From Nemertoderma westbladi (taxonomy: Eukaryota > Animalia > Xenacoelomorpha): a stretch of 64,000 nucleotides of DNA. The notes under the pieces were generated by a model. That model worked only from the letters and a program-made list of their open reading frames with translations. It had not been told where the DNA came from and did no database searches. Shown piece by piece: positions 4,502 to 49,169 of this stretch (position 1 is its first letter; the number at the start of each line of letters is the position of its first letter). The position numbers were made by a program, and so were the translations under genes. Location of the stretch: NCBI GenBank assembly GCA_032718475.1, contig JAUCBJ010000137.1, forward strand, positions 38,805-102,804. Reading direction: 5' to 3'.

Positions 4502-5573
4502 TTTATTTTAGTGCGAGTGTGTGCGTCCATAGTACTGCAATATTACTCCCCAACTAGTAAATATCATCTATTAACACTATGTATGCAGCGCGAGTGAACT
4601 GTGCGCTTACCACGCACTAAGTCCAACATAGTGTCCTACCTGTAATATATGTAAGTCACACGTACATTTACTCGCCAACAACACAATAACGGAACGGTTT
4701 ATACGTAACTGTCACTTTACTCCCTTGAAGCAGTTTATAAGCACCGAAACTACTGTATATACTTACAGTGATTGATTGTACACTCTGATCAGATATATAT
4801 ATTAGATAATATAGTAGACAAGATTGTGTGTTGCAGCTCGGCTAATCTAAATAATTAATGTAGTTTAACAAGGGAGATAGCCACTGTTGAAAAGAAAAGC
4901 AGTCATAGTTAAACCAAATTTTCGATCCTATTCCAGGACCGTTATTATTCTTATTATATATTTCTTTACTTTAGATAATGCTTTTTTGTTAATGGGTATA
5001 AATACAGTAGATACATGGTCTGCAATATTTAGCCATTACATGGGTTTCTACTGTGTAATGCCTTGTTTTTGGTTCTTGAGTAATAAATAAATAATAACTA
5101 TATTAATGTGTAAGGTTTTGCCATACTGCAACTTCCTAATATATACTGTCTAATGTGCGTTTGCTGTTCAGATGCCTACTTTATCTAATCAGATATATGG
5201 TTTCTACTGTATATCGTCGTTTAATTACTTATGAGTAACAAATATGCAATTTGTGGGTCTCTGTCTAGTTGTCTGCAATATTTAGCCATTACATGTGTTT
5301 CTACTGTGTAATGCCTTGTTTTTTGGTTCTTGAGTAATAAATAAATAATAACATTATTAATGTGTAACTATAATTAGTACTGTAATTAGTTAATAAGTAG
5401 TTAATAATTAGTTTTGCCATACTGCAACTTCCTAATATATACTGTCTAATGTGCGTTTGCTGTTCAGATGCCTACTTTATCTAATCAGATATATGGTTGC
5501 TACTGTATATCGTCGTTTAATTCCTTATGAGTAACAAATATGCAATTTGTGGGTCTCTGTCTAGTTATGCCTA

Positions 5574-6744
5574 TGTAAAAGCTTTTGCGGATATAATCAG
5601 TCCCCTCGCCCGCAAGGTACCGTTATAGGTGTTTTAACGGACATAAAAGTCATTCTTCTATATGTGTGCTTTGGCGGACATGGTAAGGCATAAAACCCGC
5701 AATGCGTCAAATACTCTGGCACAGCTTAGCCTTGATGATTCAGATTACGACATCTAACAGCTGGTTGCTGACATGGAAACGGCCATTGGACACATAGTTC
5801 TTTGTTTAGCTTAACAGCCAATCAGGGCGATTTTTACTGTCGAGGTGGAGATTTTCTGCAGATCGTGCTAGGAGTGTTCAGTCTTACTGTTTTTTGTGAT
5901 ACTGTTGTGTTGTTTCTATCTAGGCCAGGAACACCGGCTCTAGAGTCAATTCGTTTCAGACTTTAGAAGAAACATTAGTAGGCTTAGATTATAGAACGTA
6001 TAACTGTTATCGGCACATACATTGTCATATCATATCTTAACCTACCGTCTTAATGCTTTTTACTGTTGTTATTATTTTGTATCAGTTGGTTGAATATTAT
6101 TTGGAGAACATCTATAAAGAACCCAAATTTCCCAATTTTCTTGATACACTACAGGTTAGAGAGACAGGTTACATATAGCGATTGCGACTTATATTATCGT
6201 GGTTTGTAGTGAGTTTAATGCTATTTGATAGGCACTACATGAGTCAATTGCTGTTCTCTTTATATATGATAAAATTCATTGACAGTCGGCAGATTAGTGT
6301 GCAGCATTGTGTGTTACCGGTAGTGTGCATGATTGTGACTGATAACTAAGCATTTCCTAAAGAATGCGCCTCATACGTGAATCATAAGCCTTACCGACTT
6401 ACCGTTGTGTTTAGTATAAGTCATATCTCTGTTTACCTAGATAGAGCGCCACGTCCTAAAGGAACTGTTAATATTTCCCGAAAGTGAATAATATTGGTCA
6501 GAAATTATTTATTAACGATCAATCGAATAATACAGTAAGCTTACACTGCAATAACAATCTAAGCCCTCCGAATCCAGTCTCCCGGGTATATCCAGCGGGT
6601 GAATGGACGCGCACTAGGCTGGCTTCGGCTAATGTTGTGTTTATTGGTATTAAATACTTGTCATATGCTAAAGTCTATTTATAAACCAAAAGACATATAA
6701 ATTTTGGCAGGTTAAACTGCTAAAGGTCTTCAAAAGCGCGTACA
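5574..6744 (+). repeat. 5' LTR of element A
   Basis: TGTAAAAGCTTTTG...CAAAAGCGCGTACA (imperfect 14-bp terminal inverted repeat); direct repeat of 39669-40839; CCAAT at ~5818 and Inr-like TCAGTC at ~5878. Confidence 0.97.
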
Positions 6745-6753
6745 ATAACAGTT
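6745..6753 (+). promoter_or_regulatory. Non-canonical primer-binding position of A (ATAACAGTT), complementary to LTR 6002-6010
   Basis: Directly abuts the LTR end; no TGG; the reverse complement AACTGTTAT lies at 6002-6010 and 40097-40105. Confidence 0.5.
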
Positions 6754-6810
6754 TTTGTCTTTATTGCAGTAAGCAATAAAGTTGAAAGTACCGGTCGACC
6801 GGTAAACCTG

Positions 6811-7048
6811 AACCGGTACTGCTGTAGGTCCGTAGACCCAACTGCCAGAACCGGTACTGCTGTAGGTCCGTAGGCCCAACTGCCAGAACCGGTACTGCTG
6901 TAGGCCCGTAGGCCCAACTGCCAGAATCGGTACTGCTGTAGGTCCGTAGGCCCAACTGCCAGAATCGGTACTGCTGTAGGTCCGTAGGCCCAACTGCTTG
7001 AACCGGTACTGCTGTAGGTCTGTAGGCCCAACTGTCCTAACCGGTACT
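6811..7048 (+). repeat. 38-bp minisatellite (~6 copies) in the 5' UTR of A
   Basis: Unit AACCGGTACTGCTGTAGGTCCGTAGGCCCAACTGCCAG. Confidence 0.95.
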
Positions 7049-7224
7049 TCCAGTATAAGTACAATAGTATTATTCGATTTGATTATTGTATACCGGTAGG
7101 TCTTAGTACTTAATCAGGGAACGGCCGCCCTGGTTTTTTATTGAGATTTTACTTATTTCTGTCGGTTTTATTTACATGTAAGTTAATATTGAGCTGAAGA
7201 CGTGTAAGTCTGCTCAGATTGTTC

Positions 7225-7803: not shown

Positions 7804-9096
7804 GTTTATGCGATTATTCGCAACATTTATGTCCCCAAGTTTATTCCTACAGTAATTGTGCTTGTTACACATACCGTTATAGTTAAATTAACCCCGGTAC
7901 TACACGGGCTGCTTGGCGTAGGTAAAGACTGGTGACTTTGTGCTCTGGTCACTCCAGCAGATGCCGTGGTTCTTTTAACTGTTCAAGTATATTTAACTGC
8001 TAGTTATCTGTTTTAATAAGTACTTGTACCTAATTTAGGGTTTAGTGTACAGTACTTTCCGAAAGTAATTAGTGTGTAGGCAGTGTATTGTGTTGTAAAG
8101 TGGTTAATATGCACGTTGGATCTGGTAGTCCGCGGTAATTAACTTCTAGGTAGGAACACTCCGTGATACATAACGTAGTACCTATAGCGATACGGCTATA
8201 GGTCGTCAGGCGGTGGTATTTTCCTATCTGGACAGCGCAATATATTTACTACTACTTATTATTTTCAAATACCGTAGTACCCTGTCCGTTGTAATAACCA
8301 GAATTCTAACCCTTTGTTAGGCTGGTTTGTAGACTTCCTGTAAAATTACCCTAAAATTTCATACGTAATATTTTGTTGTGTTTTAATTAAAGAATTAATC
8401 TCACCCGTATCGTACGTAATTTGTAGTATTAAGTAACTTAGGTAAATTAGAATTATCTGTTTTAGTGTCCAATAAGTAGGTAGCACTTCACTGAGAGCGC
8501 ACAGCTTCTGTATAGTGACTCACCCAGAAATAATAACATTTATTTCCAATATTGACAAAACCCATTTTAAACGGTTATATATCTATTCTAAATCAACTCA
8601 AACGATTTATAAATAGTAGGCCTGCCATACAACAACTAGGTCTCAATATCAGTTGGACTACTGCTTAAATAACGGTAATAAAGTAAGTTAAAGTAACTAA
8701 GTAACCTTTAAAATTCAGAAATTCAATTATTTAAATAATTGATATACCGGTATTTACGATAGCCCTATTATCTTTATTTCTATAAATTTAGGCTGAAATT
8801 ATACCGGTATTCTGTAATTAATTCTCGTCCAGAATTATACTTATATATACTATAGGTGCAAGCTGCATACCGGTATTCACGATAAGCCTATTATATATTT
8901 ATATATATTTGTGCTAAAATTATATACCGGCATTCTGTGACAAACCTAGTTTACAATACTTATATATATTATAAGTGTATACCGGTATTCTAATATATTG
9001 TAATTAATTACCGGTACTAGGCCAACGGTCATACTGAATTACTAGACTTGCTTTAACTGTAACTATAGCAGTAAGTATTCCACTGTATAGCTAAAC

Positions 9097-12000
9097 ATGT
9101 CTGACACCCAGCAAAACCTGTCAGACAGTCTAATCGATACAACCATCTGTGACACAGATAGGAGTGTGCAGCGATTAAGAAAGGGGTTCAGCTCACCTCC
9201 TACTGAAAGAAAGGTCATCCCTCCAGTAGTAGTATCAGACCCTAGGCTAATCCAACACCGTAGGTCTATCATCGGCACTCGGGCCCAAGTCAAACGGAAC
9301 CAGGAAGCAGCTGTCCAACAGCAGCAACATCCTAGTCAAGAAACTTGTTCCCAGCGACCCGATACCTCCAGTAGTTCGGATACTGTAGAGCTGACCCCCG
9401 AACGCGGAGTGCAGATGGCGGCTACAGCCTACTCGGATCCCCTTCTCACCCTTCCTGCCGCAGTGCTAACTACTATATTGATTGCGGTGGAGGAACATCA
9501 AGCCGATTGGGCGAGAAGTAAGCGAGCGACCCAAGATAGTTATGCGGGATACGCCAGGGAAGAATTGATGTCTATTGTCGAGTCACAATGGAACTTTCCC
9601 AGACCCGGACTCCCGTTAGATTTGTCCGAAGCTACTTGGGAAGACATACACAGGATGGGAGTGACTAAAGATACGATGGATCCAGCTGTTTGGAAGAGGT
9701 CGGCAGCAGGATATGTGCAGGGATTCTTCGGCTCCTTAGAGCGATTAGAAGAACAACTGTTTCGACAACCCCAAGGACCTCAAGAGCAGGAAGAGCTGCT
9801 ATATCAAGTACGCGAAAGAACCCTACGCATTAGACTAATCCTATCAGCCTTTGAGGAAACTTCCAAAAGAAGACAGGACACGTCGCTGCAGGTTGCTGTC
9901 AAGACTTGGTTCCAGTGGGTAGGTCTCAAAGAACAAGAAACGGCCCAGTGGAAATCCCAGCTGGCTGAAAGACCAACCTATGAAGAACCAACAGATGCCA
10001 CCCTTTCTCAAGAGGAAAGTGAAGGGATAGCAGAGAGACCGCGAACGAGAGACGCCATCGACATCTATCTGTCAGACTATCAACGCTTCTTGGGTGATGA
10101 AGAGTTGAGGAGACGACTGGCTGGACTTCGCCCCAATAGTGAAGGAGCCAAGCTTGTGTTGGACTCAATCGATGCGGAAATGTCAGCTGCAAACCAAGCT
10201 AAATTTGATGAAAAACTCCGCCTCGCTAGAGTCCAAGAAGAACAAGTAAAGAAAAAACGGATAGAGGGCAGAAAGGCAGTAGCAGCGGCGAAAGCGGCAG
10301 CGTCAGTGGAAGAGGCAAAAGCGGCAGCGGCAGTGGAAGCGGCAGAAGCAAAAGCGGCAGCGGCAGTGGAAGCAGCCAAAGCAGCAGCAGCAATGGCATT
10401 GGCAGAAGCAGAACAGAGGGCGTCTGAAGAGACCACACAACTGGAGTTGGAAAATCTTCAAGAGACGCAAGATTGCATAAATAAACAGTTAACTGCTAGT
10501 CAAATGCAGATGAGGAGTCGATCTACTCCCAAGCGCCAAGGATACACATCATCGGAGGAAGGCGAGACCACCGATCCTGAAGGCGGAGGAAATAGATCTC
10601 ATCTAAGCAGGCGTAGAAAAACATATCACCGTCACCAATTGCCTGATTTGCCCCCGGCGGTTAGAAGACAACTAACTAGCACAGACTTAGGTAGTACAGA
10701 ACCCACAGACCAAATTATTAAGGTCAAAGGACTCCCTACCATAGTTGATGAGCCTGAAATAATTAGGCCTGTCGTTCCCAAATCCACTCCTGTGCTAGAG
10801 ACCCCTGTACTTCCAGAGCTTAACTCTAAATTCCCTCTACACAGTACTACACTGCCTGTACCCGGTAGAACAGTCCATGCGAATATCCCTGTCCTGGGCA
10901 CTGAGAGAGAAATCAAAGATTTGTCTCCCGTCGTCCCGCTTCGGCCCGCTACAATGTTAGCGACTCCCGCTTCGGCGGTCGAGTGGGTAGAGGAGGGATG
11001 GCGGGGGATGAATCTCCTGCTCGGACAGATGCAGGAGACTGTCCACCAACTTAAGGGAACAGTAAGGGAAAGTAGGTTAGAATTGCAAGACGTGCAGCAA
11101 AGTATCACGCTGGAACGCGACAAATTAGTCAATATACAAAAGGGTATACCAATACCCCCTGTAGCATTGTGTCAACCTGTTAGGTCTGAAGTATTACATG
11201 CGCAAGGTGTGGAGCCTACACGCATCTATACTGCTAGTGAAGTAGAAACTCCTATAGCAAACCCTATTAAGGGTGATTATAAACCTGTTGTTAATGATAT
11301 TCCCTATAGACCTGATAATGATCCGAGAAATTTATATACCGATAATTCGATATTAAATAACACGATGGCCCAAGAAAGCTTTACGCGTCAGATGGCTAGA
11401 ACAGAAGCCCGCCAAGCGGTCAAAGTGGGAGAGATCGTCAAATTCAATGGAGATGAGATGAAATGGTTACCTTTCAATGAATATTACAAAGACAGCATAC
11501 AGAACTCTGTACTATCTAACGGAGAGAAACTTAGGTTCCTCATCAAGTGCTTGGAAGGACCTCCCAAGTTAATGGCGTTAAAGTTTATTGGACATCCAGA
11601 AGGATTAAGACAAGTTTGGGATACATTAAACATCAGGTATGGTAACAAGGATAACATAGCTAAGTATTTGTATGCAAAATTAGTAGCCCCCCGAAACTTC
11701 CTTAGTAGCGGGATTATAGAGTTTTCCGATGAGATTCAGGAGATCTGTAGACAATTGGACTGGTTAGGTAAGTCTCATGAATATCAGAGTTCCATGGTTA
11801 TTGGAGCAGTAGTCTCTACTTTACCAAAGGGTGGAGTATGTACACACTGGGACAAGAAAGTGTTGTATATGAATGAGCAGCAACGACGAAGCCCTACCAT
11901 GGCTGATCTCATGTCCTTCTTAGATGGTGAAGTAAAACTACAACTCATCAAGCAGTCCAGAGAGAAAACATCGGAAAATAAGGTAAGTGAGAAACCCGTT

Positions 12001-13542
12001 TCTAGGAGAAGAGTAACACCGGTGTGTTACACTGACGACGGCGAAAGCCAAGCTTCTCAAGAAGAGGACAGCGGGAAAGACACTGACCGATCTTACTACG
12101 TTAGCAAAACCTCAAAGGACGTAAGTAAATACAAGGCTCGAACCAAAGATAGGAGAGAACAGGTTGCCAAGACTCCTCCTCAGTCTCCTAACAGAATGCA
12201 CGGAAGAAAGACCGAAGAAAGAACGAGAGTGCATCAAGTTACCCAAGGTAAAGTGAGTAACATCAAACCAAACTGTGCGCTGTGCGACGGGACCCACCGT
12301 TTGAGTGCGTGTGCTGAATTTCTAAAGAAATCCCTTGTAGACAGACGTGCAGTCATGTGGGATAAGCGGTTATGCTATAATTGCCTCAGATCAGGACACC
12401 AACGGCGAACCTGTTACTCCGACGTAAAGTGTGCAAAGTGTGGCGCGAAACATCACATCTTGTTACACAGTGAGTTCGAACGAGACAACCCGAGTCAGGT
12501 AAGTGAGCCCGAACTACATGTCCAATTCAGTGATGTAAATGACACTGATCAAGAATCTGAGATGGAAGGATTCTATACGGACGAATTCTCCGACGCCAAC
12601 GAATCCTGTTACCTAATAAATACCGCAGTGTATCGAGCACTTACGTATGAAAAGGACACTGACAATGAGTTCCCCCCAACTACCTTTGACAGACAACCAT
12701 CTTGGAAAGCGCCAACTTCCAACGTAGGAATCAGAGAATTTCCTGTAGTACAGGTAAGAGTTCACGGTCCTAACAAAAGTTACATAGTGAACGCCCTCCT
12801 TGACTCCGGCAGCACAGGAACATTCATCGATCAAGAACTAGCCGAAGATATCTTTGCTGGACAACCCAAATTCCGGACTAAATTGAATATGTCAGGAATT
12901 ATGCAGGTTTGGAAATCTACCCTAACAGCAGATTACTATGTAGGTGTGTTGTCCACCCCCCAGGATAAATTAGGAGCACAAGGTATAAGGTCGGTAAAAA
13001 TGGTGGCTATAAAGAACTTCGCTACTACCCAAGCAGACCTTTATAATTGGGACGAGGATGAGAGCATCCAACATCTTAAGATACCTCGATTCCAGACAGA
13101 TTATCCTGGAGTGCAAATACTCATCGGCCAAAACGCGCATGAGGCGCTCGAGACATTGGAGAAACGGCCTGCTCAACCGCAGCCACTGCAAACCTATGCG
13201 GTAAGAACTAGAGTAGGTTGGTACTTTACTGGCCCTTCCCGCAGAACTCTCGAAGAGAGAATGCCACAAGAACGAATATACCAAGTAAACGATTGGGAAG
13301 TGGAGAGCAGTGAGGTGGAAGAACTAACTGAGGGAACACCATACTCCTCAGATAATGACGACATCTACCAACACTTCGATGAAGAGAACACAATCGACCT
13401 ACTTACAGAAAACAAAACGTGGAAAAACCAGGTGAACCTATGTCAACTGATTCGCCCATCTGGACCCATTGATTACAATGACGAACTAAATGATGAGATA
13501 GAGCGCTACAACGCTAGAACTCGGGACGAACTCGCCGTATGA
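9097..13542 (+). CDS. gag: Element A Gag + aspartic protease (1481 aa)
   Basis: BEL gag core (KFNGDEMKWLPF...LSNGEKLRFLIKCLEG); knuckles CALCDGTHRLSAC, CYNCLRSGHQRRTC, CAKCGAKHHILLH; protease ALLDSGSTGTFI; Ala-rich coiled-coil repeats. Confidence 0.95.
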   Translation: MSDTQQNLSDSLIDTTICDTDRSVQRLRKGFSSPPTERKVIPPVVVSDPRLIQHRRSIIGTRAQVKRNQEAAVQQQQHPSQETCSQRPDTSSSSDTVELTPERGVQMAATAYSDPLLTLPAAVLTTILIAVEEHQADWARSKRATQDSYAGYAREELMSIVESQWNFPRPGLPLDLSEATWEDIHRMGVTKDTMDPAVWKRSAAGYVQGFFGSLERLEEQLFRQPQGPQEQEELLYQVRERTLRIRLILSAFEETSKRRQDTSLQVAVKTWFQWVGLKEQETAQWKSQLAERPTYEEPTDATLSQEESEGIAERPRTRDAIDIYLSDYQRFLGDEELRRRLAGLRPNSEGAKLVLDSIDAEMSAANQAKFDEKLRLARVQEEQVKKKRIEGRKAVAAAKAAASVEEAKAAAAVEAAEAKAAAAVEAAKAAAAMALAEAEQRASEETTQLELENLQETQDCINKQLTASQMQMRSRSTPKRQGYTSSEEGETTDPEGGGNRSHLSRRRKTYHRHQLPDLPPAVRRQLTSTDLGSTEPTDQIIKVKGLPTIVDEPEIIRPVVPKSTPVLETPVLPELNSKFPLHSTTLPVPGRTVHANIPVLGTEREIKDLSPVVPLRPATMLATPASAVEWVEEGWRGMNLLLGQMQETVHQLKGTVRESRLELQDVQQSITLERDKLVNIQKGIPIPPVALCQPVRSEVLHAQGVEPTRIYTASEVETPIANPIKGDYKPVVNDIPYRPDNDPRNLYTDNSILNNTMAQESFTRQMARTEARQAVKVGEIVKFNGDEMKWLPFNEYYKDSIQNSVLSNGEKLRFLIKCLEGPPKLMALKFIGHPEGLRQVWDTLNIRYGNKDNIAKYLYAKLVAPRNFLSSGIIEFSDEIQEICRQLDWLGKSHEYQSSMVIGAVVSTLPKGGVCTHWDKKVLYMNEQQRRSPTMADLMSFLDGEVKLQLIKQSREKTSENKVSEKPVSRRRVTPVCYTDDGESQASQEEDSGKDTDRSYYVSKTSKDVSKYKARTKDRREQVAKTPPQSPNRMHGRKTEERTRVHQVTQGKVSNIKPNCALCDGTHRLSACAEFLKKSLVDRRAVMWDKRLCYNCLRSGHQRRTCYSDVKCAKCGAKHHILLHSEFERDNPSQVSEPELHVQFSDVNDTDQESEMEGFYTDEFSDANESCYLINTAVYRALTYEKDTDNEFPPTTFDRQPSWKAPTSNVGIREFPVVQVRVHGPNKSYIVNALLDSGSTGTFIDQELAEDIFAGQPKFRTKLNMSGIMQVWKSTLTADYYVGVLSTPQDKLGAQGIRSVKMVAIKNFATTQADLYNWDEDESIQHLKIPRFQTDYPGVQILIGQNAHEALETLEKRPAQPQPLQTYAVRTRVGWYFTGPSRRTLEERMPQERIYQVNDWEVESSEVEELTEGTPYSSDNDDIYQHFDEENTIDLLTENKTWKNQVNLCQLIRPSGPIDYNDELNDEIERYNARTRDELAV

Positions 13543-16308: not shown

Positions 16309-18325
16309 TGTTAAACAAACTACCCCGGCCTAACCAATAAAGACACAAAACTGCTCTATTTATTAGACAGGGCAATCAGGAGCGTATTATTGCTAATGTG
16401 AGGGGCTGCTAAATACAAAACCGCTACTTACCATTAGATGGCGCTAACCTGCCGTCCGCTAATATGTTTTACTAATTTTCTACGGCTCCTGCTAATTTCT
16501 TGTTCCTTTCTCTACCAATTACTCGATAGAGAGCTAACTGTTCGAATATATGAGCCACGCGGGAATAACCAAAACAACAAACCCGAATCGGCTCCCTAAG
16601 CTGACTTAAAACGAGTGTGAGAGGTTTTACACTCAGAGTATATTCTTACGCCTAATCTTACTGTTAAAGTACGCCAATGCCTACGTCTTTTCTAATCGCG
16701 AATACTGGGGGTTCCCTAACGGAATGTGTGAATGCGAGAATATTTAAAATAATCAAAGTGGTACAGTGTTTATTAGGGCTAATACCTATAGTGGGACTAA
16801 ACTTGTCTGCGGCTGGCTTTAGGCCAGCAAATTACTAATGCGTTTTGCGTACTGAATACTGCTATCTAGCTTATTGCCCGCTAATTCAAATAACCGCCCA
16901 GCGTGAATAGTTAACGGTACTCTAATTATTACCTTAGCTACTCTCCGCTATGCTGCGTACTAATTCTTAATTTTACTAATTAATTACAGTCACAAATATG
17001 TAACAGCCTAAAATACTGTATTACTTTGACCTAATCAGTAATTATTTACAGTAAACTAAGAGATAGAAATCAATCAAAGGGAAAAGAGCGCCTATCTAAG
17101 CATTCGTAATCTTAGGCACACTTTAGTAACACACCAATCAGCGTCAGCAATCACAGCTCGCAATGCGCGATTCGCAATTGTACAATCCGCAATGCACGCA
17201 ATTCGCAATTACACAGCACAATATAATAATTCGCAATACATGCAATTCGCAATTGTAAAGCACGCAGACCTCTCCCAGGTACATCTAGGCTTCCTAACTA
17301 ACCCAATTTCTGCCCCCTAACGCTACAAATTGAGACAAAATCTGGATCATCAGCCCCCTAATTACTGTACCAGCGAGCTGCCCCCACGATACAATGCAAA
17401 TTGCCCGACCGCAACGGTGACCCCCCGCCAGCGTTGCTCGCCTTTGAATCCTCCGCTCCCTTCGTCGCTAACCCCCCGATGTGCCCACCGCCTACTGGCA
17501 CCTTAGCCCTCCATTATGCTAATAGCTACCGTAGCGGCGCATGCAAATCACAAAGTCTGACAGTCTAAAGAAATCCCGTGGGATTATTGCGTAGAAAGGA
17601 ATCACATAGAACCATTAACAAAAGGTAGAAATCATAGTTCCGGTTGTAATTAGCAGTAATCGATAGGATTAATTGAGAAACACAATCAAGAATAATCGCA
17701 CTAGCAAATCATTTTAAGAAATTAATCGAAAATAGCAAATTGCAGAAATACGCTAAAATATCCGTCAAAAAGGTGAATAGGGACAGCTCAGCAAGTACAG
17801 GGGTGATAGCATGAGCTCTACCGGCAAGCCGCCAATTTATAGGTGATCCGAATGGGGTGATGCAATAGGGTGACTCAATCGCTCTCCTATTGGCTCTCCA
17901 GTCCGCGCTAGCATTAGACCAAGCTGGAAGCAGTTAGTCCAATAAGGAGGCCGGATTGTAGCCCTATTGCTGCCCAAACCTCAAATTATTACCATATATG
18001 GTAATGGATCATGTCCCTGGCTGCTGAATGGCCAGGACAGCGTCCCTATATGCTAGCCCTATTGATGCTAATATCAGCAAGCACAAAATCCAGGGTCCGA
18101 CTAAACTTGCTACCCTGGAACTATCTACATATATCCTAAAACAAAATTACGTAGGTAGGGCTACATATTATACAAAATGGATGGATTCAAATATATGGGC
18201 GTTTTGGTTTCCTTATCTAAATGTCACCGCACTGTGCCTTATCTAAATAATTATACTGCACAATAACAAACATATTATACTGTATGATGGCTAATAATGT
18301 GGATACAGCGCCATATACCGTAACA
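16309..18325 (-). repeat. 3' LTR of element B (2017 bp)
   Basis: Direct repeat of 30828-32843; preceded on the minus strand by the PPT. Confidence 0.97.
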
Positions 18326-18332
18326 CCGCTCC
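18326..18332 (-). promoter_or_regulatory. Short polypurine tract of B (GGAGCGG)
   Basis: Plus-strand CCGCTCC abuts the LTR; same heptamer as A's PPT at 39662-39668. Confidence 0.75.
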
Positions 18333-21339: not shown

Positions 21340-24300
21340 CTAATTCTGTTTTGAGGCAGGAGACAAACTATAATCTCCCGTCTCGATACGTGTCTCCTCT
21401 AACAACACGATATCTTGGACCGGTCGGTCCAAGGTGTGTAAACCATTAGTTTTACACTTCTTTGGGTGCGGACACTTGCACCTAATTTTCACAGTGACTG
21501 TGCGCACTATGTTTTGCACGTCTGGGTGTATATGCAAGATCACTCCCGTCTCCCAATACTTTCTCTTGACAATAGGTTCGGTTATCAGTACGTAATCTCC
21601 CTTTTGGAGACTCCGAACCGTTTTGTACCACTTTGTTCTGGTGGATATGGTGGGAAGATAATATTCCCGCCAATATTCCCAGAATGTGTACGCCACAAAT
21701 TGTGTTACTTTCCAGCTTTTACGACTATATAGGTCGGCACTAATGGGTTCTGATGCCGGCACAAGAAATGCTGGACTCTGCATTAGCAAATGATTCGGCG
21801 TTAATGCAACACCGTCTGGCAACATAGCTATCGGCCTCGAGTTTAGGGTATGCTCGATTTCAATGAAAGCTGTGACCAGTTCGTCGTCGGTAAGTTGTTT
21901 GTTCACAGGCAATGTTTTGGCAATGGCCTGCTTTACAGAGCGAACTAAACGCTCCCAACTTCCTCCTCTCCAAGGACTTTCTGGAGTATTAAATCTCCAC
22001 TCTACTCGTTGCGGCAAAAGTGCTGCAGAAATTTCCTTATTCTGTGCCGCTTTATGAGCCGCGTTCAACTCGCATATTCCCCCCGACAAAGTTTGTACCC
22101 TTATCGGAGTAGAACGCCTTTACTAGTCCTCTCCTGGCCATAAATCTCTTTAAGGCCAGGAGCAGAGATTTGGTCGACATGTCTGCCACACGCTCAATAT
22201 GTATGGCTCTACTAGCCATGCATGTCAGTAGCAGACCCCATCGCTTGTGGGTCAGCCGTCCACTCTTTGCTTCAATCGGACCAAAACAGTCCACCCCTGG
22301 GTTCGTAAAGGGTGGGTCATATGCCTGCACTCTCGCTTCCGGGAGTTCAGCCATCTCCTGTTCCAATACTCTGGCGTTCACCCTCTTGCAAACCAGACAG
22401 GCGTCATACATAGTGCCTGCTGCCCTGCTTGGCTGCAATAGAATGAATCGCTGTCTCGCTGCCGACAAACAGTGTAACCTTCCCGCGTGATGCAACCTCT
22501 TATGTATATCCCATAAAATCGCTCTTTGCAATTCTATTGGGTGACTAGGGATTATCACTGGGAACCTAAACTGTGAGTTAATGTCGACAGTCTGGATTCT
22601 CGATCTATGACAAATCAAACCCTTATGGATTAATGGACTCCATTTTCTAAGGGGTTTATAGAGAACTGGTCGTTGAGCCGATAATAGATGGAATTATTTT
22701 GGGAAGGCACACATTTGATAATGTTTCAAATGCTTTAATTCCGCTTGATCAATCTCATCCTCTGTCAGAGGTTGTTTCAATTTTCGAATTCGCTCACTAT
22801 TAGTGCTCAATGGTTCTCTCAAATGTTCCGAATGTTTTATACAAAGGTACGAAACGTATCGGCTTAACCACGCAGTTCTTTTACAAATTGTCAGCCAAGA
22901 GGCAGACGAATTTAGTAATTTGTCATAAACACTGCATGACTCTAATGCCAGCGACGGTTGTCCGCTAACTAATGGAAGTTTCGAATCCAAACCCGCAGGT
23001 TTGGAAACCAAAGGCTCCATTGTGTCGGTCATTTTCTGTCCGTCACTTACCAATTGTGACTCCGATTTAGTCTGTAAGGGTGGTTTTATGTCATAACTTA
23101 CCCTTCCGGACCTAGTAGTCACGTAAGTCTGTTGGTCTGACAGGTCTCCGGGCCGCTCCAATGACTCTTCAGGCCGCTCCAATGACTCTTCAGGCCGCTC
23201 CAATGACTTAAGTTTGGCTTTAGACTTCGACTTAGAGACTTTCTCCACCTTAACTTCTGCATCTTCAGGCATCGGATTGGTCACTATCTTTAGTCGCTCT
23301 GGCCAATGTTCCTGTGTCCTCGTTAGAAAATCAGGTCCATGCAACCAAAACTCCTGCGACTCTTCCTGACAGAATTCCGCCGGCATTGCACCTCTCGAAG
23401 TTATGTCGGCCGGGTTCAACACTCCCGGACAATGTCTCCATTGTTCCTTCGTCGAAAAATCAACGATCTGAGCGCGTCTGTTGGCCACAAATGTCTTTAG
23501 TGCAATATTGTCAGCCGCAATGTATACTAACACCAAGGATGCATCCGTCCAATAGAATAAGGTCAATGTCGTGTCTAATTCCTCTGTTATTTGCTTACTT
23601 ACCTCGACCGAAACTACAGCCGCCTGTAACTCTGCATGAGGGACAGTCATGTATTTGACCGGCATTGTCTTTGATCTAGAAGTCACAAAAGCCGTCTCAA
23701 ATTTGTCCTGACTTACCTCTCGGCGAAGGTAGGCTACCATACCAAAGCCGGTGTCACTTGCGTCGCTAAATAGATGCAGTTCTAAATCAGCTGGGAATAC
23801 CAGCTGATTCGGAAAGTAGGAACGGGGTACATCTATATTTTTCAATAGATGCAACTCGGCTTCCCACTCCCTGCACTGCTTTGCATGTATAGGAGATATT
23901 GGTTCGTCCCACTCTAGGTCGGATAACCAAATTTTCCTCATGCACGCTCGTGCCTGTAATATAACCGGACTGATAAAGTTCATCGGGTCAAATAGTCTAC
24001 TCAAAGTTGATAAGCAAATTCTCTTTGTCAAAACTTTGTCTGGGCTACTGGGCTCAAATCTAACTCTTACCTGGAACTTATCTGAGTTCGGGTTCCAAGC
24101 GAGTCCCAGTACTCGCGCCATGGGAATTGGTTCTACCCCCAATTCTATGTCTCCGCTCCCGCGATCTTTCACCGGGAACGATTCTAATAGGGCCTCCGAG
24201 TTTGTAGTGAACTTGGTTAGAGGAAAACCCCCTGTAGCCAAGCACTCCTGTAGGCCGTGAGCCACTTCTATGGCTTGTTCCGCTGTGTCCTTGGACACCA

Positions 24301-27300
24301 ATCCGTCGTCCATATAGAAGTTTCTCAAGATGGACTCGATAACCTCTACTGGATACTTACCAATCTGGGCTGTTGCCGTTTTCTTTAAAACAAACAGCGT
24401 GCCATTTGGACTATCGCGGGCGCCAAATATCCTAACGTACATCTGATATGTAACCACTGGGCCGGATAAGTCTTCATTCTCAAACCAGAGAAATCGAAGG
24501 CTATCCTGGTCTGCCTTACAGGCTCTTACCTGGTGGAACATCGCCTCGATGTCACAAGTAAATGCGAATCGCCGCTGTCTAAAACGCAACAGTATTCCAA
24601 TCAAATAATTATTCAGGTTGGGACCATCCATCAACTCTGAATTCAGGGACATACCTCTATAGACTGCTGCGCAGTCGTTGACTACTCGGACTTTGTCTGG
24701 CTTGTCAGGGTGAGTCACATAGTGGTGTGGAAGGTAATAAGTCTGGTCTGTCACTAAGTCAGGGTCCTCTACCTTCCCAGCAAATCCCTTGGCGAAATAG
24801 TTGTTGATCTGGGCGCAATACTTCTCCCTAATGTCCGGATTCTTCAACAACCGAGCCCTTACTCCGTTTAATCTTTTCAAGGCTAAGTTGTAGTTGTTCT
24901 CCAGCTTAGGTGGTTGTCGACGCCACAACATTCCAGCTTCAAAATGTCCAGTCGGTAGCAGACGTATGGTGTCTTCCATCATCTCCAACGACCGTTTCTC
25001 ATCAGTAGACATGGCTAGGTCATATCCACCGGGTTCCATTGCGTCCCTATCCAGCCATTCGACGGTTCTGGCTCCTGTCTCGAGGTCCTGGTGTATCAAT
25101 TCCTTCTGTAATTCCTCCTCACTGTATTGGAAAATGTCTAGGTCTCGATATTTAGCCACTTGACCCTCCACTATGTCTGTATAAGTCAAAACGTTAGTCA
25201 GATAAGTAGCGTGGGCCGCTAAACCAGACCCACGGGTCTGATAACAGTAGTGCTCGGGTTCACTATCTGTCTGGTCGTTGTGAAGTGGTTCCGACAACCT
25301 AACATTATCGGGAATCAACTCCTCGTCCGACTCGCTAAAGTCACTATAGTGGTCAATACAGGTTCTCCTAAACTCGTCTAAGTCTGGTGGTTCTACTAAC
25401 GGTGGTTGAATTATAGGCTGTAATTCGTCGTATCTGTCTATTGGCTTGTCGCCACCTGTAAACTCATAAGACATGGGTACTCTTGTATACCAACCTAGTA
25501 TGGTCCTATGGGCATGCGGTCCATTGACATGCGGCTCAGCTGGTCTCGTTTCCCATATCTGGTGTGCGATCAGCTGTTCTGCACCAATCAACATAGAAAC
25601 ATTCCTATAACCTACCTGGTGTCTCGGTATCCTGAGCTTGTCAAAATACTCCTGTGCTATGGGACTCATCGGCGGCACCTTACCTAACTGCCTGCCGAAT
25701 CCCTTCATAGCTAGACACTTAAATCCGTCCAATGGCAAAGCTTTCCGTTCTTGTCGAGTATGTTGGTCTCTCGGAAGTAGGGAATCTAGTTCCACTGAAA
25801 TTCTGTGTCCCTTGAGGTCTCCTACCCCATGCATAGACTTCAACTCTATTTGGATCTCCTCTGCGTCCTGGAAGCTAGAAATGGCTCTCGCCACTTCCTC
25901 GTCGATATAAGATAATGTGGACGCAGTGTCCAACATCACATATATTCGCTTCGATCCCTTATCGCCAGTAAGTTTCACCGGAATCACGCTAAATATTTCC
26001 GACGTGGCCAATGATAAATACGTCCGCGCGCTGGTCGATGAACTATCCGCGGTGAAACCTTGGCAGGTCACTTCTCTTGCGCTCGACTCGCCATCCTCAT
26101 CCGACGAACCTGGTTGGTAACCATCGTCCTGGATGCCGGTGTACGTATTTCTCCTTATCGATACGGGTTCTTTGCTCCCCTTCCTGTGAGGATTTCGCTG
26201 TAAGTAACGGTCCGTCGGGGTGTGGAAATCCGCATGTAGCAACTTGTGATGTAGTCTGCCGCATTCCATGCATCCGTCATTGCTGTTCGGGCACTGCCGC
26301 CGTACATGGCCTGGCGCAAGACATGCCCAACAGGTGTCCAACGTCCGCACTTGAACTCTTCTCTGTTGCGAATTTAATTCTTTGAACCGTCTGCAACTAT
26401 CTAACTTATGATCGTCAGATCTTACCTCCTTTAGTAAACAGTATTGGCAACCTACAAATCCATCCGGCAACTCCTGTTGCTTTAACCTAGGTCTATCTAA
26501 CCGCTCACCTGACCATACTCGCGAGTCTGATCTAAAGGCTGGGGTACTCGAATTATATCTGTCTACTGAGTTATAAGTCACAGTGGTCCTGTCATTGTCA
26601 AAACTTACCATAGACTTACCGGTAACAGGTTTAGACTCCCTCATATTCTCCTCTGAGAAGTTTGATTTCATCTCTGCTACTGCGTCTGTGGCTATCATGT
26701 CATGAATGTGCTGAAGTGTCAACACCTTACCTTGACCCTCCAACTTATTCTCTAATTTGCGCCATTTCTGTCGATAACGCATGTTTAAACGTCTTATTAC
26801 ACTCTTCAAAACTTCGGCGTGATCACCATGATAGAGGTAGATTCACCGTCCTCAAGATGTCCAATGCGTTCGAAATAGCGTTCGCTAAGTTCAACAGCTC
26901 TAACGGAGTTGTAATCCTTCCGCCCTTACCCAAGTCTTCCACTATCGACTGCGCCATCTTGGTTTTATTCCCGTAGATGTCACTAAGCGTCTTCATTGCC
27001 AACTCAAATGCCCTTTCATTGCCGACGAAGTTATCAGCAATGGCTCTAGGTTCTCGATGGAGCATCTGAAGCAAATAGTTGAACTTCTCGTTGGGAGTAA
27101 AGGTGCTGTTGGTTAGCTGCTCGTCGACATAGGTTTTAAAGGTCCTCCAGTGCTTATGGTTGCCCATAAACTTCTGGGGTTGTTGCGTCGGCAGTCCTTG
27201 CCTAGCAGCAAACTTACCTATGTCCCTAAGGGTTGCGTCGTTCCGGGTTAACAAATGGTTTAGTTCCGCAGGGTTGTTAAGTCTGGTCCTTTCCCGGGGA

Positions 27301-29643
27301 TTGAAACTTACCTGCTCCGCGTCCGTCCTTCTTTCCTTATAGTTTCGGGACTTCTGACGTCTCATGTCTTCCTCTTCATCACTTGACTCGGTGTCAGTCC
27401 TTAGCGCTCGCGATGGTTTGCGCGCCGAGGCCCTGACCCAAGCATCTTGTATAATTTTCTCAGCCGAATTTTCGAAATTGGGATTATGAATATTCGGGAC
27501 AGGCGTCCTTACCTGAGGTCTATGTGGTATAGTCTCCTCCGATATGCGTACTCGTTGACTAGGCTGGACTTTATCTAACTCAGGCCTGCTAGGATTTGAA
27601 TTACTTCTTACCTGGGCTGCTTCCTTTAACCGTAGGTTGCTAAGCATGTCCATTATAGGTTGGATGTGCGGCGATATAGCTTGCGCTAAACTAGCACTTA
27701 ACTCATCCCTCGTAATAAATTCCTGGCTAGGGTTCTGTTGTATAGTCGGCTCTATCTGAGTAATCCGCTGTCTCTCATATGATCGCTCTTCCGGTTTAAC
27801 CCGGAAGTTCTCCGTCGAACTGGGTCGGCGCTCCGTCCGCGTATTCCAAACCCGCGGGTTTGGTTCGCCAAGTACCGTCGGAGTTTCTCTAAACTCTTCA
27901 TCGTCGTGTTCGGTGTGTAGTGGTGCGGTGTTCTGATGCCGTGGATTCTGCGCGATAGGTGAAGCACTAATACCAACTGGCGTGCGATATGTAGAGAACG
28001 GTTTAGCGATCCGTGTACTCGTAATAGCTGGACCGGGTATAGGAATTCTGGTCGTCGTCGTCTCGCGTATGGTCGGAGTTCTCGCTTCCTGTTCGGCCTT
28101 CTGCAGTGCGAACAGTTCTCGCAACTCGGTCCCTACACTCGCCCCACATTCTTCGATCATTCGCATCCCCTTCTCGGCGATTTCATTCGCCTTCCTGGTC
28201 CGTTCTTCGCTCTCTAAATTTAATCTCGCACTTTCTAACTGCGCCAGTTTACGTTCTTCTTCTTCCCTCGCTCGTCTCGCTGCGCTCTCTTCTTCCACAC
28301 GCGCCTTTTCTTCATACAATGCGCGTCTTCTTTTTTCGATCTCGAGTTCGCGTTCCTTGCGTTCGCGTTCGAGTTGAAGCTCGCGTTCCTTCTGTTCACG
28401 TTCGAGTTTCTTGCGCTCGCGTTCGAGTTGAAGTTCGCGTTCGAGTTGAAGTTCGCGTTCTCTCTGTTCGCGTTCGAGTTCCTTGCGCTCGCGCTCGGCT
28501 TGAAGCTCGCGTTCCTTTTGCTCGCGTTCCGCTCGTTCGCGCTTACTTATGTCCTCCAACTCTCGTAGCTCTGCGTCCAACTTACGTGTGCGCTTCCGCC
28601 TGTTGTTCGTCCAGTCGGCGTCTTCTCTCCTCCGCCAAGTTGTGAGAAACAAGGGATCTGGCACATATAACTTTCCCTCGCGCGTGACTAACCTGGGAAT
28701 CGCCACTGTCTCTAGATGCATCGTCGGGTGGAGTTAACGTTCTCTGTTGGATATTCTCCGTCGTCGGTAGCACCTGGCCTGGTACCACCACTCCATTCTG
28801 CATCAGCCAGCTAGTAACTTCCCTCTGATAACGGCGCTCTTCTTTATCTTGGATCTCTTCCCGCTCCACTAAGTCTCTCAACTCTGCGTCACTCACCTGA
28901 GTCGCCTGCGCTTGTGATGCCCATAGCAGCCAGTTCTCCGTCCTTACTCGTCGGAATCGCTCCGATAACTCGCGGTGCTCCAACAAGGCTGCTAAAACCC
29001 TGTCGTAAATCCTCATCGCCACGTCGCTCGACTGAGACTCTACTGCCTTCTTCGCTAGGACTGCAAGCTCCTCCGTCTGCTTGAATAACGCTGAGTTGTA
29101 TCCTCTTCTAATCTCTACTAACTCTACCCTCCCGATGTTGGCTGAGTCAGCTAACATCTTCCTTACCTTGTCCGTCGTCCGAGTTATATGTCCGGCATGT
29201 GCGCGAAGTTTCTTCTTTATCGCGATATCAAGTTCTCTCTCGCTTACCTGACTCACACTCGGTGGACTTGAAGGATTATTTCGGGAACTACGGGTACTCC
29301 TAACAGCCGTCGGGACCACGGCACTTACCATACCCACAGGTCTGGAAACCGGGCTCCGGGCTCTCGCTTCTGCTACACTACTCTCCCTATCACTCACCTC
29401 TGTCCGGGCTGCTGTGCGGTCCTTCCTTACAGTAGCGGTAGGGGATCCTAATACTATTATCTCTGGTTGTTGTTCTTCCTCACTAGTCACTGTCTCATCC
29501 TCCTGTTCACTTACGTCAGCGTCGCTCGCTGCGTCGTCATAGTCGGCATTGTCGTCAACAGTTATGTTTACGCTATCGTCAGTCGGTGGTCCAGCCGCCG
29601 TCTCGTAGCTGTCCTCTAGTGCCTCTTTGTCTGAGACACTCAT
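21340..29643 (-). pseudogene. gag-pol: Element B gag-pol, disrupted by frameshifts (~28590, ~26840, ~22080) and an in-frame TAA (22694-22696)
   Basis: E/R-rich coiled coil, KFMGNHKHWRTF, three Cys/His knuckles, MLDTAS protease, FYMDD RT, LFSDAS RNase H, GVDCFGP / SDKGTNF / GSWERLV integrase. Confidence 0.95.
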
Positions 29644-30489
29644 AGTCTAAATAATGTTTGCCTTCCGGCAAAATATCTCGCAAAAGTTCGAGATATAATT
29701 ATAATTTAACCGAAATATGGTCAAATTATTTGTCTAATAATCAGTTGGTCCAAAATGTCAAATAAATTCGCAATGCAATATTGTGAATTTAATGGGGTAT
29801 AGTTATAGCAAATACTAGCACAATATTTAAACAAAATATTATTATATAGCTACTATATAGTATTAAATACCGGTATGACACAAAATAACTTTGAATCTAA
29901 TACAAAATATTCAAAATAAACTTGCCACCCGAATATTTCTAATTTTATATATATAGCTCTAATCAACGTAATTTTAATTTCAAATATTATATGTATCCAC
30001 TAGCGCGTGGCTACATCTTCGGGTTGCGACTCTCTCTAACTCTCTCTCTAACTTGAGCGATTCAAAAAACCATGGCCGGCTAAACCTAAATATCCTAACT
30101 AATAAATTGAGTTCAGCTTCGCAGTTAAACAACCGATAATTTTTACTGCTTCCACAAACACAATGGTGCCAACAGAACAACTAACCTTGTTTGCTGTGAG
30201 ATTCCACGTCCGCATCCAAAGATTCAGGCCCTTCGCTGATTGCAAACCGAACCCGCAGATCCACACGAACCCCAAACTCAGAAGTATCTCCAGATGGTAT
30301 AAAATAACTAAGCGGTTACCTAACATACCGGTACAATACTCTAGAATTTTACAAATAATTTTGACCGAAACTGAATTCTCGCAAACCTAGCTAAAATTTT
30401 CAAAACTTACTAATTACAGTTTGCCCTAAGGCCTAAGGAACTGCTGTATTCGCAATTAGTAAAAACGCACTACCGTACATCCACTGTAT

Positions 30490-30827
30490 GCAGCACAGTA
30501 AGTAAAACAGTACACCAACCTAACAGCCTAAAGAATACTGTATGTGGTACAGCAAAACAAATGTCCTTTCTACCGTACGCAGTAACAGCAATCAGCCTAA
30601 TGTACTGCTGTACTATTGTACGCAACCAGTGAATACAGTAATCTAAACTAACAGCCTAAGAAAGAATACACTCAATGTCCTACTGTACGCGGTAGGCCTA
30701 CAGCAGACAAGAAACGTGCTTTACTGTTGAAGTAACAGTAAATAATACAGTAATCTAATTTAACAGCCTAAAAGAATATACTCTCTGTCTTACTGTACGC
30801 AGTACAGCAAAACAAAACGTGCTTTAC
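30490..30827 (-). repeat. Degenerate tandem repeats in the 5' UTR of B, including a second copy of the LTR-end/PBS motif
   Basis: AACAGCCTAA-containing units; AAACGTGCTTTACTGTT occurs at 30712-30728 and 30815-30831. Confidence 0.8.
30818..30827 (-). promoter_or_regulatory. Non-canonical primer-binding position of B (sense GTAAAGCACG), complementary to an LTR-internal sequence
   Basis: Abuts the 5' LTR; no TGG; the complement lies inside the LTRs at 31773-31782 and 17255-17264. Confidence 0.55.
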
Positions 30828-32843
30828 TGTTAAACAAACTACCCCGGCCTAACCAATAAAGACACAAAACTGCTCTATTTATTAGACAGGCAATCAGGAG
30901 CGTATTATTGCTAATGTGAGGGGCTGCTAAATACAAAACCGCTACTTACCATTAGATGGCGCTAACCTGCCGTCCGCTAATATGTTTTACTAATTTTCTA
31001 CGGCTCCTGCTAATTTCTTGTTCCTTTCTCTACCAATTACTCGATAGAGAGCTAACTGTTCGAATATATGAGCCACGCGGGAATAACCAAAACAACAAAC
31101 CCGAATCGGCTCCCTAAGCTGACTTAAAACGAGTGTGAGAGGTTTTACACTCAGAGTATATTCTTACGCCTAATCTTACTGTTAAAGTACGCCAATGCCT
31201 ACGTCTTTTCTAATCGCGAATACTGGGGGTTCCCTAACGGAATGTGTGAATGCGAGAATATTTAAAATAATCAAAGTGGTACAGTGTTTATTAGGGCTAA
31301 TACCTATAGTGGGACTAAACTTGTCTGCGGCTGGCTTTAGGCCAGCAAATTACTAATGCGTTTTGCGTACTGAATACTGCTATCTAGCTTATTGCCCGCT
31401 AATTCAAATAACCGCCCAGCGTGAATAGTTTACGGTACTCTAATTATTACCTTAGCTACTCTCCGCTATGCTGCGTACTAATTCTTAATTTTACTAATTA
31501 ATTACAGTCACAAATATGTAACAGCCTAAAATACTGTATTACTTTGACCTAATCAGTAATTATTTACAGTAAACTAAGAGATAGAAATCAATCAAAGGGA
31601 AAAGAGCGCCTATCTAAGCATTCGTAATCTTAGGCACACTTTAGTAACACACCAATCAGCGTCTGCAATCACAGCTCGCAATGCGCGATTCGCAATTGTA
31701 CAATCCGCAATGCACGCAATTCGCAATTACACAGCACAATATAATAATTCGCAATACATGCAATTCGTAATTGTAAAGCACGCAGACCTCTCCCGGGTAC
31801 ATCTAGGCTTCCTAACTAACCCAATTCCTGCCCCCTAACGCTACAAATTGAGACAAAATCTGGATCATCAGCCCCCTAATTACTGTACCAGCGAGCTGCC
31901 CCCACGATACAATGCAAATTGCCCGACCGCAACGGTGACCCCCCGCCAGCGTTGCTCGCCTTTGAATCCTCCGCTCCCTTCGTCGCTAACCCCCCGATGT
32001 GCCCACCGCCTACTGGCACCTTAGCCCTCCATTATGCTAATAGCTACCGTAGCGGCGCAGGCAAATCACAAAGTCTGACAGTCTAAAGAAATCCCGTGGG
32101 ATTATTGCGTAGAAAGGAATCACATAGAACCATTAACAAAAGGTAGAAATCATAGTTCCGGTTGTAATTAGCAGTAATCGATAGGATTAATTGAGAAACA
32201 CAATCAAGAATAATCGCACTAGCAAATCATTTTAAGAAATTAATCGAAAATAGCAAATTGCAGAAATACGCTAAAATATCCGTCAAAAAGGTGAATAGGG
32301 ACAGTTCAGCAAGTACAGGGGTGATAGCATGAGCTCTACCGGCAAGCCGCCAATTTATAGGTGATCTGAATGGGGTGATGCAATAGGGTGACTCAATCGC
32401 TCTCCTATTGGCTCTCCAGTCCGCGCTAGCATTAGACCAAGCTGGAAGCAGTTAGTCCAATAAGGAGGCCGGATTGTAGCCCTATTGCTGCCCAAACCTC
32501 AAATTATTACCATATATGGTAATGGATCATGTCCCTGGCTGCAGAATGGCCAGGACAGCGTCCCTATATGCTAGCCCTATTGATGCTAATATCAGCAAGC
32601 ACAAAATCCAGGGTCCGACTAAACTTGCTACCCTGGAACTATCTACATATATCCTAATACAAAATTACGTAGGTAGGGCTACATATTATACAAAATGGAT
32701 GGATTCAAATATATGGGCGTTTTGGTTTCCTTATCTAAATGTCACCACACTGTGCCTTATCTAAATAATTATACTGCACAATAACAAACATATTATACTG
32801 TATGATGGCTAATAATGTGGATACAGCGCCATATACCGTAACA
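30828..32843 (-). repeat. 5' LTR of element B (2016 bp)
   Basis: Direct repeat of 16309-18325; sense-strand TATAAA at ~32354-32359 and CCAAT at ~32408-32412. Confidence 0.97.
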
Positions 32844-32848
32844 TCTTA

Positions 32849-33712
32849 AGTTTACGCCGACAGATCGCTCGCTTCGGGACGAGTAATACCATGAGATCGG
32901 ATAAGGGAACGAACTTCATTGGTGCCAACAACGAAATCCAGGCTTACGTGAAGGACTGGAACCAAAGACAGGTGGACGATCAGCTAAGGATAACAGCGTC
33001 TAGCTGGACCTTCAACGCCGCCGACGCCCCTTGGTGGGGAGGAAGTTGGGAGAGATTAATTAGAAGTGTCAAGACCGCATTTCACTTTATAGTGCCATGC
33101 CGCGCGTATCTCACCGACGAACTTTTGCGGACATTAATGGAGGAAATAGCTGCCTATCTCAACGAGAGACCGCTTATGCCAGTCTCATCGAGTCCCGATT
33201 CCCTGGAAGCGCTAACACCCGCACACTTCCTACTGAAGAAACATGTAGCCATGCTCCCACGATCGGAGATTGCCGACGGAGACGAATACTGCCGTCGAAC
33301 TTGGCAACTTATGCAGTTGCTATCCCTTCGTTTCGCTGACCATTTCGAGAAACATTATCTGCCCACGCTACAACTTCGAACTAAGTGGTTTGCGCAGCAA
33401 GAAAACGTCAGCGCCGGAGATATGGTGCTTATTGTAGATTCAGACCTTCCACGTAAACGGTGGCAGACAGGTCGTATCATCGAGACTCACATCTCGGATG
33501 ATGGTTTAGTACGCTCGGTAGAACTCGTCGTCATGCGGCGTAACTTCAAGAAGCCAGGTATAATCTTTGAGACGCAACAACTCAACCGCCCAGTTGGTCG
33601 TTTATGTTTACTGGAAAGAGACAGAGAACTCACCGGAAACTATGGAAGGCAAGACACTCTTCCCACGACCACCTCCCTAATTCCTCAAACATCTAGGGAC
33701 TCCCCAACGTGA
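32849..33712 (+). pseudogene. pol: C-terminal part of element A integrase
   Basis: RSDKGTNFIGA, APWWGGSWERLIRSVK, LNERPL, LTPAHFL, GDMVLI, DGLVRSV, RPVGRLCLL. Confidence 0.95.
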
Positions 33713-39660: not shown

Positions 39661-39668
39661 GGGAGCGG
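39661..39668 (+). promoter_or_regulatory. Short polypurine tract of A (GGGAGCGG)
   Basis: Immediately precedes the 3' LTR. Confidence 0.75.
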
Positions 39669-48943: not shown

Positions 48944-49169
48944 TAAATATAACGAAAATATCGTGTCGTTTTTAGCAAAAAATACAAGATGAAAAGGCTA
49001 TCCAAATAAAGGATATTATATACAAATATACTTAAAATCATGCCGCCATAAAGTGGTAAATGATCGTTTGTTTTGGTTAGAAATGACCACCTTTGTAGCC
49101 TTCTCATTTCTCGTAATTGTTAAGGTGATATTTTATTGTTTTGCTTAGAAATACCCGTACCTGGAACCT

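Follow-up and report, generated by a model that had tools for sequence, protein, structure and literature searches.

Two nested BEL/Pao retrotransposons with primer-binding positions complementary to their own LTRs: candidates for self-priming

What starts the minus strand of an LTR retrotransposon whose 5' LTR is followed by no tRNA-type site? This question is raised by element A, which lies together with a second element, B, in the window, the whole 64-kb stretch of DNA that was analysed. By definition, BEL/Pao elements, to which A and B belong, are primed by tRNA, and how they replicate is described as poorly understood (PMC8742986). An earlier note had put A forward as a candidate for self-priming. 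This interpretation is supported by a self-complement that sits flush with the LTR end and by its recurrence in relatives. Judging from the letters, we give a chance of about three in four to the reading that A and B prime their minus strands from a stretch of their own LTR, independently of tRNA.

Anatomy and classification of the two elements

A and B are both young BEL/Pao retrotransposons, one nested in the other. Their parts are located as follows.

5569..5573, + strand: left target-site duplication of A, GCCTA (right copy at 40840-40844)
5574-40839, + strand: element A, a BEL/Pao retrotransposon with two LTRs, a target-site duplication and Pol domains
5574..6744, + strand: 5' LTR of A, 1171 bp, TG...CA
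9091..13542, + strand: gag-region frame of A (DUF1759), closed by a stop codon
13543..16314, + strand: RT, RNase H (Peptidase_A17) and integrase zinc finger of A, with the RT motif YMDY, broken by element B
16304-16308 and 32844-32848: target-site duplication of B, TCTTA
16309-32843, − strand: element B, inside the integrase region of A
16309..18325, − strand: 3' LTR of B
22052..29646, − strand: gag-pol frames of B with DUF1759, Peptidase_A17 and integrase zinc finger, interrupted by frame changes and a stop
30828..32843, − strand: 5' LTR of B, 2016 bp, with a TATA box at about 32359, some 590 (587) nt before the primer end
32816..33712, + strand: remainder of the A integrase region (DUF5641), the frame resuming past B
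39661..39668, + strand: polypurine-tract-like GGGAGCGG of A
39669..40839, + strand: 3' LTR of A, beginning with TA instead of TG and the same as the 5' LTR at the primer site

The Pfam search found DUF1759, Peptidase_A17, the integrase zinc finger and DUF5641 in both elements, so that each has the Gag and Pol domains tested for in BEL/Pao (Belpaoviridae). The domain search gave no chromodomain match in A or B, but these BEL/Pao domains instead. The RNase H motifs D-E-D-D are present in A and in B, and all listed best homologues carry PF05380. Two LTRs, a target-site duplication and a polypurine tract, likewise tested for in BEL/Pao, were also found. The best database relatives show 27-43% identity, and the RT-RNase H regions of A and B are 44% identical to each other. 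In both trees, which contain no outgroup, A and B are sisters. When the 5' and 3' LTRs of A were compared, 5 differences were seen in 1171 nt; those of B (2016 and 2017 bp) differ by 11 mismatches and 1 gap. A is 18.7 kb long without B and is damaged by the stop at 13540-13542, the RT motif YMDY and the B insertion, and B has a length of 16.5 kb.

Both elements have long leaders rich in repeats. That of A contains an array with a 38-bp unit in about 6 copies (6769-7072), followed by a 289-bp duplication (7231-7748). In its 3' part, A carries two overlapping extra frames (35323-39590, + strand) of 843 and 635 aa. No membrane segment was found in them and they are therefore not env-like; they also gave no Pfam, PDB or sequence match. 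A weak atlas lead (0.81) pointed to a 3'-5' exonuclease and CCHC knuckles, and by eye the exonuclease-like stretch crosses the frame change. The 3' region of B at 20010-20351 (− strand) matches residues 164-261 of the first of these frames at 35% and is thus part of extra cargo common to both families. The insertion site of A is an array of 253-296-bp repeats on both sides (5016-5573, 40840-41144). Elsewhere in the window, a 506-aa frame at 61014-62534 (+ strand) has a weak aspartyl-protease match, and there are tandem arrays with units of 37 bp and 27 bp as well as a near-perfect palindrome of 106 bp (46363-47521, 48636-49006, 45906-46011).

Complementarity between the primer-binding position and the LTR

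The following sites of A and B bear on the priming of the minus strand.

5878..5883, + strand: Inr-like TCAGTC, putative start site of A, with CCAAT boxes 60-93 nt upstream and the primer end about 130 nt further on
6000..6010, + strand: candidate self-primer of A, pairing exactly with the primer-binding position over 6002-6010, with the 3' end AT
6113..6119, + strand: TATA-like box, downstream of the candidate primer
6460..6470, + strand: second, wobble-containing complement, less favoured
6545..6554, + strand: 10-nt exact complement of leader 6761-6770, a possible LTR-leader helix next to the primer-binding position
6649..6654, + strand: ATTAAA poly(A)-like signal, located 3' of the primer end, the order that strand transfer needs
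6745..6755, + strand: primer-binding position of A, without TGG, flush with the LTR end
30817..30827, − strand: primer-binding position of B, without TGG, flush with the LTR end
31773..31783, − strand: candidate self-primer of B, 10 Watson-Crick pairs and 1 G-U pair, with the 3' end AC

The earlier note was right that A has no tRNA-type site at its LTR end: 6745-6753 reads ATAACAGTT, and TGG is absent from the 356 nt past the LTR. In B, TGG is absent from the 199 nt past the 5' LTR. The complement at 6002-6010 of A is exact over 9 nt and, as had been claimed, the pairing stops at the LTR edge, with 6744 and 6011 unpaired. When 6745-6755 and 6000-6010 are laid against each other, 10 of the 11 positions pair, the single exception being a T-T mismatch at 6754/6001. 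The caution that a 9-mer is weak by itself was justified, since the match was found in 11 of 1000 LTR shuffles and is modest on its own. A complement of at least 9 nt in the own LTR was seen for 32 of 8421 internal positions of A, and one of 11 nt for 2 of 8421. Among unrelated pairs of primer-binding position and LTR, 9 nt were reached in 29 of 400 at offsets 0-8 and in 0 of 210 at offset 0. The 11-mer of A is a near-palindrome and hence also a direct repeat.

In B, the pattern returns with letters unrelated to those of A, as 10 Watson-Crick pairs and one G-U that begin at the first post-LTR base. This match occurred by chance in 8 of 3000 and in 0 of 1000 shuffles and, unlike that of A, its primer motif is not palindromic. 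For short repeats past the primer end, B ranks within the top 1.2% of windows, an enrichment that A (21%) does not show. By the rule of at least 10 nt with a start 0-5 nt past the LTR, B has 10 nt exact and A has 11 with the base of most copies; the exact match of 9 nt in the present copy of A stays below the 10-nt criterion of PMC6317226.

The leaders also match their LTRs at other places, over 10 nt in A and 8-13 nt in B, so that complementarity is not peculiar to the primer-binding position. These matches are barely populated in whole-region folds and may represent either a supporting structure like that of Tf1 or the sign of a purely structural helix. In the leader of B, the LTR end and the primer-binding region recur as a diverged second copy at about 30632-30834 (− strand), some 100 nt downstream.

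Other copies of family A were analysed with contigs from four public runs of four studies (X1, X3, X4 and X5) mapped over 5450-7250, where X1 may be the source sample of the present sequence and X4 may be RNA. In X1 and X3 the contig depth was about 1000-fold higher over the LTR than over the flank, which indicates that family A is very large. The base complementary to 6001 was found at 6754 in 55608 of a depth of 56175 in X1 (99%, 23 contigs), 20383 of 20779 in X3 (98%, 8 contigs) and 12.9 of 12.9 in X4 (3 contigs); X5 had no coverage at this position, and the depth share rests on the other three runs. Since 98-100% of the depth pairs at 6754, the typical family A duplex is probably 11 nt long. 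Among the differences listed (40 of 295), none falls at 6000-6010 or 6745-6753, and the lone one in the primer-binding position extends the self-complement and does not give TGG. Outside the 38-bp array 12 breakpoints are listed, and three of them lie at 6011, directly after the last base of the candidate primer. No random draw of 200000 matched this, assuming independence, although the three may be dependent and breakpoint joints may be unreliable at low likeness. Such a hot spot is what a strand-transfer boundary would give.

Where the transcript of A starts was considered from promoter motifs and from RNA folding. The Inr-like site that had been noted near 5878 is present as TCAGTC at this position. 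If, on the other hand, the TATA-like box at 6113 is the real promoter, 6000-6010 would lie in U3 and would not be transcribed. In folds of the present copy, the duplex appeared only if the RNA began at 5990 or 6000, with 7.5-7.8 expected pairs, whereas starts at 5800-5975 gave 0.0 expected pairs, folds of more than 750 nt being unreliable. Promoter motifs thus point upstream, but folding favours a start near 6000. By its motifs, the candidate primer is probably not the 5' end of the transcript, unlike in Tf1.

Candidate primer sites in related BEL/Pao families

With an alignment of 27 Pol sequences as the query, 90 BEL/Pao loci were collected. Of these, 80 are the best of 506 loci confirmed in 12 of the 64 parts of a metagenome collection, and 10 are stray contigs from genome bins. 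The latter (L081-L090) lie inside bacterial metagenome-assembled genomes and are most likely host contamination. No relative was found in the viral contigs scanned. Across the 90 loci two tRNA calls were obtained, both doubtful. A bounded 5' LTR end was available in 16 loci, of which 13 were used. L011, L021 and L084 were left out, as their repeat ends are not LTR-like, and duplicates were removed (L010 of L008; L015 and L016 of L013). Loci that appear in none of the comparisons below had no usable LTR repeat.

Two of the 13 relatives (L041 and L048) have tRNA-type TGG sites, and their self-match is 4 nt at most. Of the other 11, nine match their own LTR over 10-15 nt, one contiguously and eight across a GT-AG junction. 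The contiguous match, in L057, is 11 nt long. The eight that match at the junction only are L002, L008, L029, L046, L047, L052, L087 and L088, with 0-1 of 25 shuffles each; the introns of the junction type have a GT donor close to the consensus and an AG acceptor rich in pyrimidines. L081 has 10 of 11 pairs across a junction, and L077 allows two readings, a contiguous duplex with a bulge or a junction match of 9 nt. In 9 further loci only the LTR start was known; a blind scan of them revealed a 10-11-nt junction match in 7 (5 new families and 2 duplicates), against 3 of 90 shuffles in the control. One further family was L058, and no junction match was observed in L026, L055 and L022. Altogether, 15 related families have a junction-complementary primer-binding position, a count biased by the six scan-found families that were picked by their match. 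Mismatched pairs of primer-binding position and LTR reached 10 nt in 8 of 400 cases, 4 of which are sister families that share a primer.

The matches are alike in their geometry. Like A and B, 15 of the 16 resolved relatives have a predicted primer that finishes in AC or AT at its 3' end, and 12 of the 16 have, again like A and B, a poly(A) signal downstream of it. The distance from the LTR end to the first pair of the helix is 0-4 nt in both elements and in all resolved relatives but L088, where it is 8 nt and the LTR end is doubtful. The length of the helix stays at 10-12 nt, with 15 nt in one case. Covariation between primer-binding position and LTR, which the earlier note had named as a check, was observed, as self-complementarity persists with wholly different letters. 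The sister families, whose lack of complementarity would have spoken against the proposal, are themselves self-complementary.

A splice-built primer was also sought in A and B. When any GT-AG was allowed, the best junction match reached 8 nt, shorter than their contiguous match, and with donors limited to the consensus it was 0. In the tree, junction types occur near A and B (L058, L046) and in a separate group of 14 rows, and contiguous types in at least 2 places. The trees contain neither an outgroup nor named BEL/Pao reference elements; in such an unrooted tree, the scattered contiguous types are consistent with repeated intron loss, A and B possibly being forms that have lost the intron. 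The distance from the start motif to the donor is 91-142 nt in four junction-type relatives, comparable to the about 130 nt between the Inr-like motif and the primer end in A. It is shorter in two others, where the motif above the donor is a TATA box at 36 nt (L046) and an Inr at 23 nt (L088). In these two, the short distance implies a very short first exon, and the spliced primer would be at or near the cap as in Tf1.

Alternatives, proposed route and known systems

The LTR-PBS helix could be real and selected but structural or regulatory (in packaging, dimerisation, translation or a splicing check), with priming by other means. The additional LTR-leader complements, a site that apparently lies 130-590 nt inside the transcript and the near-palindromic motif of A are compatible with this. 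Near-palindromic motifs of this kind resemble dimerisation signals. Against it stand the constant start of the helix near the LTR end, its constant length and AC or AT end, and its being missing exactly where a TGG site occurs (L041, L048), and no alternative primer candidate was found. We regard this explanation as unlikely.

A could also prime itself from the second site at 6460-6470, with a transcript that starts below the TATA-like box at 6113. The earlier note had already pointed to this wobble-containing site, which is confirmed with 8 Watson-Crick, 2 G-U and 1 Watson-Crick pairs at offset 1. In the present copy its duplex energy is lower than that of the first site (-10.9 vs -8.9 kcal/mol). 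In 3 of the 4 runs (X1, X3 and X4) the LTR depth peaked at 6426-6486, which spans the second complement and may be the most conserved LTR segment, and the bin of the primer site was below its upstream neighbour in X1 and X3; summed contig depth is, however, a poor gauge of conservation. With the majority base at 6754 only 8 pairs are left to the second site, its 3' end is TA and not AC or AT, and one X3 contig end differs within it. Priming from this site is therefore quite improbable.

Hardly better placed is priming by half of a host tRNA or by some other small RNA of the host, the LTR match being incidental. Between 6 and 8 nt of each primer-binding position may resemble anticodon loops, of Asn for A and of Val for B. 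Half-tRNA priming is described for the copia lineages Osser, Bryco, Gymco-II and Bianca in the available part of PMC6317226. The letters of the primer-binding position vary freely among the families, though, and each follows its own LTR or splice junction, so a fixed host RNA cannot account for them; this route seems very improbable. That the match of A arose by chance or as a by-product of its near-palindromic, A+T-rich motif is the least credible, since other copies extend the match to 11 nt and the sister B has a non-palindromic match at the same offset, even though the shuffles and the unrelated pairs at offsets 0-8 yield 9-mers.

We therefore retain self-priming from 6000-6010 in A and from 31773-31783 in B, for which the following route is proposed. 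Transcription would begin upstream, at about 5880 in A and about 555 nt upstream of the primer in B, and the primer would form the 3' end of a long capped fragment instead of its first 11 nt. The LTR site would then fold onto the primer-binding position, possibly aided by the further LTR-leader helices. By analogy with Tf1, the RNase H of the element would cut the RNA just 3' of the duplex. There was no Rfam family and no tRNA anywhere in the 64-kb window, so no known ribozyme accounts for this cut. The reverse transcriptase would copy from the LTR end to the cut (about 6011 in A) and jump to the 3' R, whose poly(A) signal downstream of the cut would fit the jump. In most relatives the primer would be assembled across an exon-exon junction; a contiguous primer as in A and B would arise if the spliced 3' LTR had once been copied. 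More tentatively, and at somewhat less than even odds, a broad BEL/Pao lineage may have replaced the tRNA with a self-primer built across an LTR intron, with splicing licensing reverse transcription, while A and B would be intron-lost, with an 11-nt primer deep in R that is released as the tip of a long capped RNA.

No case of BEL/Pao self-priming was known to the earlier note, and none was found in the literature searched, whose scope excluded Repbase Reports, most subscription journals and supplements; within the same scope, no splice-built primer for BEL/Pao was found. The available parts of PMC3601003, PMC3118150, PMC554778, PMC2774666, PMC8220671, PMC4558846, PMC6238403, PMC6934838 and PMC7472051 contain no BEL/Pao self-priming, and a passage on the primer-binding site is absent from those of PMC3118150, PMC554778, PMC2774666 and PMC6238403. 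If the reading is true, BEL/Pao would be the third self-priming superfamily of LTR elements, after Ty3/gypsy (shown, Tf1) and Ty1/copia (predicted, TAR). Such elements would be missed by tRNA-based finders of primer-binding sites and might escape silencing by tRNA fragments. A splice-built primer would link reverse transcription to splicing, as the intron of the 5' LTR must go and the 3' copy must stay, and A and B would be the intron-free counterpart. With a depth about 1000 times the flank, the primer and the cut site of family A should be directly mappable in host RNA.

Belpaoviridae, according to the ICTV, have the order PR-RT-RH-IN, LTRs of 0.2-1.2 kb, a polypurine tract, genomes of 4.2-10 kb and an 18-nt primer-binding site for tRNA-Arg or tRNA-Gly (PMC8742986). 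A and B share with them DUF1759, Peptidase_A17, the integrase zinc finger and DUF5641, arranged in this order of PR-RT-RH-IN, together with the LTRs and the polypurine tract. They differ in their lengths of 18.7 and 16.5 kb, in the 2.0-kb LTR of B and in lacking the 18-nt tRNA-complementary site. Since membership in BEL/Pao is set by Pol phylogeny, the missing tRNA site marks a variant.

Elements without a tRNA-type site are also the fungal copia GalEa and the bivalve biv-TRIM, for which the available part of PMC6934838 leaves the priming route unexplained and describes an inverted-repeat hairpin in the internal domain, in contrast to an LTR-PBS duplex. In the plant Ty1/copia lineage TAR (Houba, Osr-1) and in plant Tcn1, self-priming is predicted from LTR-PBS complementarity of at least 10 nt with a start 0-5 nt past the LTR, as stated in the accessible text of PMC6317226. 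TAR belongs to another superfamily and to other hosts, and a splice-built primer is not mentioned for it in that text.

The closest likeness is to Tf1 and Tf2 of Schizosaccharomyces pombe, Tj1 of S. japonicus, the Tf1/sushi group and Tcn1, which have no tRNA site and a primer-binding site of about 11 nt complementary to their own LTR (PMC7175516, PMC4600332, PMC5341516, PMC6317226; available parts). The primer of Tf1 is the first 11 bases of its own RNA, freed by an RNase H cut between bases 11 and 12 (PMC7175516, in the part available), and the same mode is given for Tj1, Tf2 and the Tf1/sushi group in the corresponding parts of PMC4600332 and PMC5341516. In A and B the 3'-OH would by analogy also have to be freed by cleavage, but by their motifs the primers would lie about 130 nt (A) and 555 nt (B) inside the RNA, and most of their relatives would assemble the primer by splicing, unlike Tf1. 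The Tf1 type consists of Ty3/gypsy chromoviruses, whereas the Pol domains of A and B are those of BEL/Pao. In conclusion, A and B resemble the Tf1-type self-primers in their sequence, yet they are BEL/Pao elements outside the Tf1/sushi group.
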